Positions 31,806 to 33,983 are shown, counted from the stretch's first letter. The stretch is DNA of 64,000 nucleotides from Mustelus asterias (GCF_964213995.1 NC_135825.1:12400001-12464000), one strand, 5' to 3'. Notes: generated by a model not told the origin, from the sequence alone. Program-made: numbers and translations.

Positions 31806-31905
31806 TTTGCTCAGTTCCTTCATCTGGAATGTGATTCGCTGGGGGCTCTTTACCCTCCTGGTGATTTGTGTGATTTCGGCCACATGGTACACGAGAAAAT
31901 CTCAG
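31806..31905 (+). CDS. Gene A transmembrane exon with TM arginine
   Basis: ttccag|T ... CAG|gtgagg, phase 2-0; SLLSSFIWNVIRWGLFTLLVICVISATWYTRKSQ. Confidence 0.88.
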
Positions 31906-32059
31906 GTGAGGATTATGGACTTTACAACAATCATTCTGCAAGTTTTCCATCAATTATCAAAAAAAACATTGATCGCAGATATTGTAAAGAAAAGGTTGCA
32001 TTGAAATCAATGTCCACAGGGATAAACAAAGCCATCGGCACCAATGGTGGCTTTTTTAA

Positions 32060-32292
32060 AGGAGATGTAAGGGGGAGGTTTTTCACACAAAGGGCGGTGA
32101 ATGCACGGCCAGAGGAGGTGGTGGAAGCAGATTCTATAACATCATTCAAGAGGCATCTGGATAGATACATGAAAAGGCAGGGAATAGAGGGATATGAACC
32201 ACGTAGAGGCAAGATAATATTAGATTAGAGAGGCATCTGTATCAGCACAGACTTGGTGGGCCTGTTCCTGTGCTGTACTGCTCTTTGTTCTA
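32060..32292 (+). mobile_element. CR1 3' fragment
   Basis: GDVRGRFFTQR..FKRHLDRYM plus CR1 tail. Confidence 0.8.
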
Positions 32293-32559
32293 CCGTATTG
32301 CTCAGAACGAGTCCCACGGTTGTCACTCCGGCAGGACAGGCTGTGATTGAGCTCACCCTGACAGCAACTTAGTTTTCTAAAGATTGAAATGCTATTTTTA
32401 AAGTCTGGCCAGATTTATGAATTTTAAGATGGAACCTCACTCCCCACGTACACCCCCCCTCCACCGCAACTCAAACATCATGTAATACCACCCCCACCAC
32501 TCCCAACACTGCTCCCAGCGTTGCTTGGCAACTTCCCTGGTACTTTCCCCGGCCAAGTG

Positions 32560-33690
32560 GCACGAATGTTATTTGCCACATGTCAAACCAAGCCTGGATA
32601 TTGTCCAGGTCTTGCTGCAATTGGACGTTGATGGCTTCAGTATGTGAAGAGTCGCGAATTGTACTCAACATTGTGCAGTCAACAGCAAACATCCTCACTT
32701 CTGACCTCATGTTGGAAGGAAGGTCATTGCTGAAGATGGTTGGGCTGAGAATCCTTTGCACCCCGTGTAGTGATGTCCTGGAGCTGAGATGGCTGACCTC
32801 CAACCATAACAACCACCTTCCTTTATGCCAGGTATCACTCCAACCTGTGGAGGGCTTTCCCCCCCCGGGGGAAAGATGTAAGATTGTATTATTACCCCCA
32901 TTCACTCTGATTTTGTTCAGGCTCCTTGATACCACACTCGGTCAATTGCTGCCTTGATGTCAAGGGCAGTCACTCTCACCTCACCTCTGGCATTCAGCTC
33001 TTTAGTCCATGTTTTAACCAAGGCTGTAATGGGGCCAGGAGCTGAGTGACCCTGGCTGAACCCAAACTGAGCATCCATGAGCAGGTTATTGCTGAGTAAA
33101 TGCCTCTTGATGGCGCTGTTGATGACTTCTTCCATCACTTTACTGATTAGAGTCATAGAGTCATAGAGGTTTACAGCATGGAAACAGGCCCTTCGGCCCA
33201 ACTTGTCCATGCCGCCCTTTTCTTTTTAAAACCCCTAAGCTAATCCCAATTGCCCGCATTTGGCCCATATCCCTCTATACCCATTGTACCCATGTAACTA
33301 TCTAAATGCTTTTTAAAAGATAAAATTGTACCCGCCTCTACTACTGCTTCTGGCAGCTTGTTCCAGACACTCACCACACTCTGTGTGAAAAAATTTCCCC
33401 TCTGGACGCTTTTGTATCTCTCTCCTCTCACCTTAAACCTATGCCCTCTAGTTTTAGACTCCCCTACCTTTGGGAAAAGATATTGACTATCTACCTTGTC
33501 TATGCCCAATAATCTCAATGATTATTGAGATTAGACTGATGGGGCAGTAATTGGCCAGGTTGGATTTGTCCTCCTTTTTATGGAGACCTACGAGCAATTT
33601 TCCACATTGCCGGGTAGATCCCAGTGTTGTAGATGTACTGGAACAGCTTGCCTCGAGGTGCGGCAAGTTCTGGAGCAGAAGCCTTCACAA
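32560..33690 (-). mobile_element. L2/CR1-group LINE RT fragment with a nested CR1 3' fragment (about 33148-33508)
   Basis: AQFGF..VRVTALDIKAAIDRVW, VRMFAVDCT, QQDLDNIQAW; nested LFPKVGESKTRGH..FFTQSVV. Confidence 0.75.
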
Positions 33691-33935
33691 TTATTGGCAG
33701 AGAATTAATCACAGCCACAGGGAAACATCAGTTACCCATGAGAAAGTCATGTTACATGTCTTCATGAGGGATACAAATGACAGTTCTTCCCAGCAATGGG
33801 TGATCAATGTGATCTCAAAACTGCCCCAAGCTTTGCCTCAATCTGCTGCCACTTCCAGAATTCTGTTCAAATCCGAAATGTCAATTGACGCATTGTTCTC
33901 CCAGTCTCAACGAATCTGATGATTTTCTTTTCCAG

Positions 33936-33983
33936 TCACTGAATGAATCCGATTCTCACAGTTCAAACAAAGTGGGAAATTGA
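33936..33983 (+). CDS. Gene A terminal cytoplasmic exon
   Basis: ttttcttttccag|TCA phase 0; SLNESDSHSSNKVGN*; AATAAA at 34081; conserved paralog at 58155-58202. Confidence 0.75.
   Translation, partial: SLNESDSHSSNKVGN

Follow-up and report, generated by a model that had tools for sequence, protein, structure and literature searches.

What kind of receptors are encoded by the tandem pair of immunoglobulin-superfamily genes that lies on the + strand, amid LINE and SINE repeats, in a 64-kb stretch of Mustelus asterias DNA (the window, i.e. the whole stretch analysed here), and how might such receptors bind and signal? In a preliminary description they were viewed as activating receptors in which a CD300/pIgR-type ectodomain is joined to an LRC-type 'NxxR' transmembrane (TM) helix and a tyrosine-free tail, a combination of modules from separate mammalian families probably related to the skate MDIRs (modular domain immune-type receptors). 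We analyzed the gene models, the affinities of the individual modules and their relatives in other fishes, and weigh below the functional readings that these observations favor.

The locus and its gene models

The two genes could be assembled from the following exons, with AG/GT at every junction and compatible phases:

8592..8897, + strand: gene 1, V-set exon 1, CD300-like, with Asn at the position of CD300lf Asp98
11260..11583, + strand: gene 1, C2 exon 1, FCRL-like, with extra cysteines
16865..17170, + strand: gene 1, V-set exon 2
23182..23431, + strand: truncated C2 exon without a donor site, skipped in the model P0009
23896..24201, + strand: gene 1, V-set exon 3
28126..28449, + strand: gene 1, membrane-proximal C2 exon
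29748..29832, + strand: gene 1, stalk exon, Ser/Thr-rich with one Cys, phase 1 to phase 2
31806..31905, + strand: gene 1, TM exon, W-N-V-I-R-W plus helix, alternative acceptor possible at 31815
33936..33983, + strand: gene 1, tail exon, ending at the stop, with AATAAA-type signals at 34081 and 34611
43177..43213, + strand: gene 2, signal-peptide exon
45197..45511, + strand: gene 2, V-set exon, tandem acceptors 45197/45203, D98 codon at 45475
47789..48112, + strand: gene 2, C2 exon, 106/107 residues as in the ITIM receptor P0005
53501..53585, + strand: gene 2, stalk exon
54894..54984, + strand: gene 2, TM exon, W-N-V-I-R-W plus helix
58155..58202, + strand: gene 2, tail exon, ending at the stop, 3' of the N gap

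The resulting architectures are V-C2-V-V-C2 for gene 1 and V-C2 for gene 2, and both models translate without a stop. Of the introns at the 3' end, the one between stalk and TM is in phase 2 and the one between TM and tail in phase 0. The exon chain of gene 1 is an exact part of P0009 (XP_078098258.1, a Mustelus asterias protein labelled pIgR-like); no signal-peptide exon for gene 1 was found within the 64-kb window. The preliminary description had raised the possibility that gene 2 carries a different, ITIM-bearing tail, given a gap in the assembly. This gap of 147 Ns (56182-56328) lies inside the TM-tail intron of gene 2, and searches of the window for an ITIM-type exon with five TM/tail queries from relatives gave no match better than E 0.15, so that a hidden ITIM tail in the window was rejected. 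Since the tail exon of gene 2 is situated past the gap and these queries were null, an ITIM-bearing tail in this gene appears unlikely.

The AGs before the V exon of gene 2 are arranged in tandem, six bases apart (45190-45203), while the TM exon of gene 1 has acceptors nine bases apart (31806/31815), the upstream one of which is lost in the TM exon of gene 2. In both genes an open frame runs past the stalk donor, over 29833-30187 in gene 1 (~117 codons) and 53586-53733 in gene 2 (~48 codons), and this stretch is 93% alike between the two; read-through of the stalk could yield a form without the Arg-TM, and one contig of the run X1 enters the stretch. This run (guessed to be RNA, share 0.05, with related rather than identical sequence) has contig pieces starting at 28122, 29747 and 33933, at a distance of 1-4 bases from the start of an exon in each case, a weak hint of expression to which no weight is given here; the pieces displayed include no exon-exon joint and one of them continues from the stalk into the intron.

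The truncated C2 exon abuts an LTR-like piece (23432-23705, with a TATA-like box, an AATAAA and a CA end) that precedes the flank of the third V exon, and the intron upstream of it is broken by a LINE of ~4 kb (18965-23068). At 25835-26016 the 3' end of a V exon recurs as an isolated copy together with the adjoining intron sequence, the remainder of that exon being absent. A further LINE, which begins with a direct repeat of 162 bases, occupies the C2-stalk intron of gene 2 (48500-52908) and has long open frames at 49037-50011, 49891-50979 and 50980-52908, and the - strand of 2284-3871 contains short frames that, judged by eye, resemble fragments of retrotransposon integrases. The intergenic sequence preceding gene 2 (37236-40773) recurs after it (59118-60453, 85-95% alike); therefore, a third paralogue may follow past the window.

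Affinities of the ectodomains, the TM helix and the family

The best single-domain match of the V domain among solved structures was mouse CD300lf (71 bits, E 8e-19). A fold search likewise recovered CD300lf first; the AlphaFold model used for it was that of a relative, P0050, rather than of a window protein, and is of low confidence in its C2 and stalk (pLDDT about 40-60). The V domain further shares the second (CC') disulfide of this family, with C36 and C44 aligning with those of 6C74. The best single domain of pIgR, on the other hand, reached 35.5 bits, and the loop before the Y-W-C motif is unlike that of pIgR domain 1. Hence, of the CD300/pIgR-type affinity proposed earlier the CD300f-like part holds, whereas the pIgR-like part does not, and orthology to pIgR, which has V domains only and a domain-1-type Ig-binding loop, was rejected in light of the C2 domain, the far lower single-domain score and the differing loop. 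The best PDB match of the C2 domain was FCRL5, weak per domain (29.8 bits at best), and no LRC domain was found among the PDB matches of V and C2. As regards the FCRLs, the C2 domains are FCRL5-like but also score above the cut-off of the Pfam Ig_C17orf99 model (28126-28449 and 47789-48112) and have extra cysteines, which occupy three sites in 98, 121 and 113 of 123 elasmobranch domains, and the V domain is not of the FCRL type. Human C17orf99 presumably lies near the CD300 cluster; taken together with the Pfam match, such a position would mean that the C2 domain may derive from the C17orf99/CD300 region and not from an FCRL.

A set of 80 distinct proteins was gathered as relatives, and every one of them that has a species name comes from a shark or ray. 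The proposed relation to the skate MDIRs was confirmed, as skate MDIR5 (P0034, ABC86800.1) is among the close relatives: in a local search of the 80 proteins the V and C2 domains matched it with E-values of 1e-30 to 1e-47, and identities of the window domains to MDIR5 are 48-56% in V, 58-70% in C2 and 56-59% in the TM (for gene 2, V 48-50%, C2 58-65% and TM 59%). MDIR5 has the architecture V-C2-V-C2, a W-K-V-G-R-W TM and a tyrosine-free tail of 21 residues. It is like the window genes in having a signal peptide, V-C2 units in which extra cysteines occur, a stalk with a Cys, an outer R-W and a Tyr-free tail of ~20 aa, and differs from them in the Lys three residues before the Arg (R-3; Asn in the window genes) and in domain order (V-C2-V-V-C2 and V-C2 in the latter). 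Given the domain identities and the matching V-C2 units, R-W TM and short tail, both genes belong, on these sequence features, to the paired-receptor family of elasmobranch MDIRs and are of the MDIR5 type. The modularity typical of MDIRs is also seen here, with five Ig domains in gene 1, two in gene 2 and many paralogues per species, and the 'MDIR2' of Callorhinchus is V-C2 as well; skate MDIR1-4 are absent from the named matches among the 80 relatives. The abstract of the original MDIR paper, that of Cannon et al. 2006, is said to class MDIR5 as being without signalling motifs. More generally, the MDIRs have been described as a multigene family of skate and zebrafish with activating and inhibitory forms and kinship to CD300, TREM and pIgR (PMC3031540). 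Both the MDIR family and the TM principle are thus already known, and the genes add members; a literature search, the scope of which ended short of subscription papers and author manuscripts (the MDIR paper included), found no paper on the Arg-TM of MDIRs or on a teleost homologue.

The helix W-N-V-I-R-W-G-L-F-(T/A)-L-L-V-I-C-V-I-S was recovered in both genes as previously described, starting at 31825 and 54904, and so were the short tails devoid of tyrosine, which comprise 19 aa after the helix and are spliced in frame; gene 1 has a single Tyr, which lies in W-Y-T at the inner edge of the membrane and is part of no motif. The motif is N-V-I-R and not the N-L-x-R earlier invoked. A pattern of the form [WY][NDE]xxRW followed by a hydrophobic run occurs twice in the six frames of the window and in none of 20 shuffled versions. 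The bare NxxR with a hydrophobic run also occurs twice, against a shuffled mean of 0.8 and a maximum of 2, so that NxxR alone is within chance, and the TM exon alone had no PDB match up to E 10 and no Pfam match. The 80 relatives yielded 31 R-W helices, distributed over 29 proteins, with D (13), K (8), N (6), S (3) or T (1) at R-3. Going by these helices, the TM motif of the elasmobranch family is aromatic-x-x-x-R-W, with the Asn of the window genes being a minority state. In 28 of the 31 the Arg is followed by 18 or 19 uncharged residues before the next inner Lys or Arg, and it can thus be placed near the N-terminal end of the helix.

This bears directly on the claim that the TM is specifically of the LRC type. 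The LRC receptors (Fc-alpha-RI, GPVI, NKp46, OSCAR and LILRA) likewise have an N-x-x-R with the Arg at the N-terminal helix end; however, a DYT motif and an acidic helix end are also theirs (PMC6557307), and both are missing from the window genes, whose helices end in W-Y-T-R-K and W-F-T-R-K without a C-terminal acidic residue and which have S-S-F in place of DYT (most relatives have S-Y). Given that, in addition, R-3 is Asn in just 6 of the 31 TMs from elasmobranchs and 1 of the 30 from teleosts, an LRC-type identity is not established and the label 'LRC-type NxxR' appears overstated; what is common to the two, judging from the helices, is the position of the Arg. Nor could the combination of modules be upheld as new in itself, since NxxR TMs are published from Xenopus and mouse CD300 members can use FcR-gamma, and the teleost design described below shares it too. 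In Xenopus such TMs occur on FCRL- and SLAM-type ectodomains, with FcR-gamma dependence for two of them (PMC2413239, PMC4536121, PMC6557307), and those of the FCRL-like proteins need or favor FcR-gamma (PMC2413239). The Xenopus XFL proteins with TM1 resemble the window genes in having an FCRL-type C2 beside an NxxR TM, a short tail and a paired family, and differ from them in their FcR-type ectodomains, no CD300-type V being described in the available part of that source (PMC2413239). Mouse CD300 members able to use FcR-gamma have been reported (PMC2803305).

The relatives fall into two TM classes with a sharp difference in the tails: an ITIM is present in 0 of the 22 proteins whose last TM is Arg-type and in 28 of the 31 in which it is uncharged, a count that excludes 23 proteins in which no TM was called and 4 that terminate in an internal signal peptide, and that is not independent, because the sequences are related and the gene models are predicted, several being fused. 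Fisher's value for the association (5e-12) accordingly overstates the evidence, as the sequences are related. An ITIM-like hexamer does occur in the short tail of P0030, an Arg-type protein that escaped the class threshold, and is the one such case given for 22 terminal tails of the Arg class. Gene 2 and the ITIM receptor P0005 of the same species, the accession of which is consecutive to that of P0009, are identical at 100/102 positions in V and 106/107 in C2, with ectodomains 98-99% identical. In a tree of 93 V domains (a quick version with few columns, built without the 38 of 131 domains that had no TM call), sharks and batoids were split (SH-aLRT 99) and the TM classes were intermixed, the label changing 27 times, where shuffling gave 31 changes on average and a value as low in 40 of 500 shuffles. 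Going by this tree, the V domains group by lineage rather than by TM class, with both TM classes being old, and ectodomains appear to have been exchanged or duplicated between the classes inside lineages. This near-identical pair of a putatively activating and an ITIM receptor offers a natural test of the origin of paired receptors.

Counterparts in teleosts

In a profile search of 1.84 billion representatives, the best 150 matches of which were screened with a TM profile, the R-W helix was recovered in pIgR-like proteins from sharks and rays that have V domains only, in a sturgeon protein and in a teleost V-V-C2-TM protein, P0184. The pIgR-like proteins of this V-only kind (P0138, P0108, P0150, P0147 and P0142, from sharks, rays and sturgeon) have a W-x-x-x-R-W helix, and hence a second receptor lineage shares this TM. 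A search with P0184 yielded 39 proteins, the named ones of which are uncharacterised teleost proteins ranging from eels to percomorphs. Thirty of these have a Y-x-x-x-R-W TM and a short tail without an ITIM, and in 21 of the 30 the R-3 residue is acidic (Glu or Asp); the other nine comprise one spurious match to the rule, one R-C and seven models without a TM, and no ITIM-bearing partner was found among the 39.

The V and C2 domains of the teleost proteins are about 25-34% identical to those of gene 2, and the extra C2 cysteines are common to both. The best matches of the zebrafish V and C2 domains were a caecilian V-C2 protein and MDIR-type proteins of Callorhinchus, among 223 proteins preselected by a shark profile. 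The likeness between shark and teleost TMs (median 16.6 vs 2.4 bits) falls to 4.4 vs 2.4 bits with the R-W masked, and thus rests mostly on the R-W. The teleost V-C2-TM proteins (e.g. zebrafish XP_073795128.1, P0266) share with the window genes the extra cysteines, the aromatic-x-x-x-R-W helix, the short ITIM-free tail and the CD300lf pocket residues (see below), and differ from them in the mostly acidic R-3 and in a V domain without the F-strand Cys. The caecilian protein P0196 is a V-C2 with extra cysteines and pocket residues like those of gene 2, in a model without a TM. The teleost gene is likely to be an orthologue of the shark type. In 33 of 34 V domains of the teleost set (P0224-P0261, one caecilian included) the F-strand Cys is replaced by Val, Ala or Leu, and an extra Cys near the N-terminus suggests a relocated disulfide. 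From the ESM Atlas no clusters were recovered besides the 'hypothetical' one of the teleost protein itself and CD300-named ones.

A shark-only origin of the V-C2-Arg-TM arrangement was rejected, as the design is present in teleosts. Its occurrence there together with the pocket implies that it is probably ancestral to jawed vertebrates.

Ligand pocket, signalling and alternative readings

In CD300lf the phosphocholine site is formed by Tyr34, Cys36-Cys44, Gln41, Arg42, Trp89 and Met100, with Lys94, Gly96 and Asp98 as Ca2+ ligands (PMC6166816). Compared with 6C74, the V domain of gene 2 retains 8 of 10 pocket residues (Y34, C36, R42, C44, K94, G96, D98 and M100), Gln41 and Trp89 being replaced; of the residues retained, K94 and G96 take part through their backbone carbonyls alone. 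All three V domains of gene 1 have Asn in place of Asp98. The pocket is nearly invariant in the 34 teleost and caecilian V domains (Y34 in 34, R42 in 32, W89 in 33, K94 in 32, D98 in 33 and M100 in 32), which fits a fixed small ligand, and is looser in the 93 elasmobranch V domains, of which 64 retain D98 and 54 R42. This conservation favors the head group of a lipid as ligand in the case of gene 2 and of the teleost gene, together with diversification among sharks: the V domain of gene 2 is predicted to recognize, with Ca2+, the head groups of phospholipids, whereas gene 1, given its Asn98, may bind more weakly or have another ligand. Comparable paired forms with over 90% ectodomain identity, some of them using FcR-gamma, are known from mammalian CD300 (PMC2803305), of which mouse CD300lf/CLM-1 and its partners share the V fold with the CC' disulfide and, in the case of CD300lf and gene 2, 8 of the 10 pocket residues. 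The window genes have a C2, unlike the mammalian proteins, for which the available part of one source describes a single V and no C2 (PMC6166816), and their N-terminal Arg differs from the TM Lys or Glu of activating CD300 members as presented in the accessible part of another (PMC2803305).

The position of the Arg at the outer helix end together with the short tail, a point that held up on reanalysis, is that of partners of FcR-gamma and zeta. Receptors that pair with FcR-gamma via a basic residue have an N-terminal Arg, while type I partners of DAP12 have a central Lys (PMC1440944, PMC13107469). The N-terminal Arg is present in CD89, NKp30 and NKp46, the part of the review available noting that the role of the Asn has yet to be put to test (PMC13107469), and macaque KIRs with a TM Arg use FcR-gamma and not DAP12 (PMC8102735). 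An FcR-gamma/zeta-like adaptor has also been proposed within the primordial jawed-vertebrate set (PMC4536121). Speaking against docking via the Arg is the nature of R-3, which is acidic in 13 of the 31 elasmobranch TMs and in 21 of the 30 from teleosts, and Lys in 8 of the elasmobranch set; where it is acidic, the charge of the Arg could be neutralised inside the helix. The reading that we prefer, with a probability of about one half, is that the window genes encode activating receptors with a CD300f-like V for phospholipid and Ca2+ and an outer-helix Arg docking FcR-gamma or CD3-zeta. Under such a mechanism, the V domain would bind phospholipid head groups with Ca2+, and the Arg at the outer helix end would pair with the aspartate pair of an FcR-gamma or CD3-zeta dimer. 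Clustering on lipid-exposing surfaces, such as dying cells, microbes or lipid-mimicking pathogens, would then start ITAM signalling, and ITIM paralogues with the same binding domain might set the threshold and oppose the signal.

The most pertinent departure from this scheme concerns the ligand alone: the receptors might be activating and adaptor-coupled, and yet recognize a protein, either a pathogen surface or a polymorphic self protein. The CC' and FG loops vary among the paralogues, gene 1 has its Asn98, gene 2 is 98-99% identical to an inhibitory paralogue, and murine norovirus docks in the very lipid pocket of CD300lf (PMC6166816); set against this is the near-invariance of the pocket in the teleost homologues, and we consider a protein in place of a lipid unlikely, even though the two kinds of ligand are not mutually exclusive. 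That the proteins are Fc or polymeric-Ig receptors for IgM, IgW or IgNAR might be read from the matches of V to pIgR domains and of C2 to FCRL5, and from the many relatives labelled pIgR-like or FCRL5 in databases. Such labels are automatic, and the low pIgR score, the differing loop before Y-W-C and the weak per-domain FCRL5 match described above render Ig binding quite improbable.

A different kind of objection would accept the ligand-binding domain and deny the signal, with the Arg serving as an interface anchor and the proteins competing with, or tethering for, the ITIM paralogues as decoys. The situation of the Arg at the helix edge amid aromatic residues, the frequently acidic or basic R-3 and the reported listing of MDIR5 as lacking signalling motifs are all compatible with this; but a mere anchor need not follow the tail class, whereas the Arg occurs only in the class with short tails, is missing from that with ITIMs and is kept in teleosts, so that a decoy role is improbable. 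Finally, it is very improbable that gene 2, or both genes, are silent or mis-modelled and have a different tail: while no database protein equal to the gene 2 model turned up in the searches for relatives, and this gene has a LINE in its C2-stalk intron and a gap in its last intron, all exons are open and in phase with canonical splice sites, gene 1 equals an annotated model, and the window yielded no ITIM exon.

In addition to the preferred reading of activating, lipid-binding receptors, a broader evolutionary scenario may be put forward tentatively, at clearly less than even odds. The shark genes might be an expansion of an ancestral receptor composed of a CD300f-type lipid-binding V, a cysteine-rich C2 and an FcR-gamma/zeta-type Arg-TM, which teleosts would have kept as a conserved activating lipid sensor and from which elasmobranchs would have made a homogenised activating/ITIM family. 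If the former reading is true, the MDIR family gains a concrete activating mechanism and a candidate ligand. If the latter is true, MDIR5 would turn out to be an activating receptor in cryptic form, and the coupling of innate receptors to FcR-gamma/zeta by way of an Arg would date to the common ancestor of sharks and bony fishes; zebrafish would then offer a direct test, in which XP_073795128.1 would allow both the adaptor and the lipid ligand to be examined.
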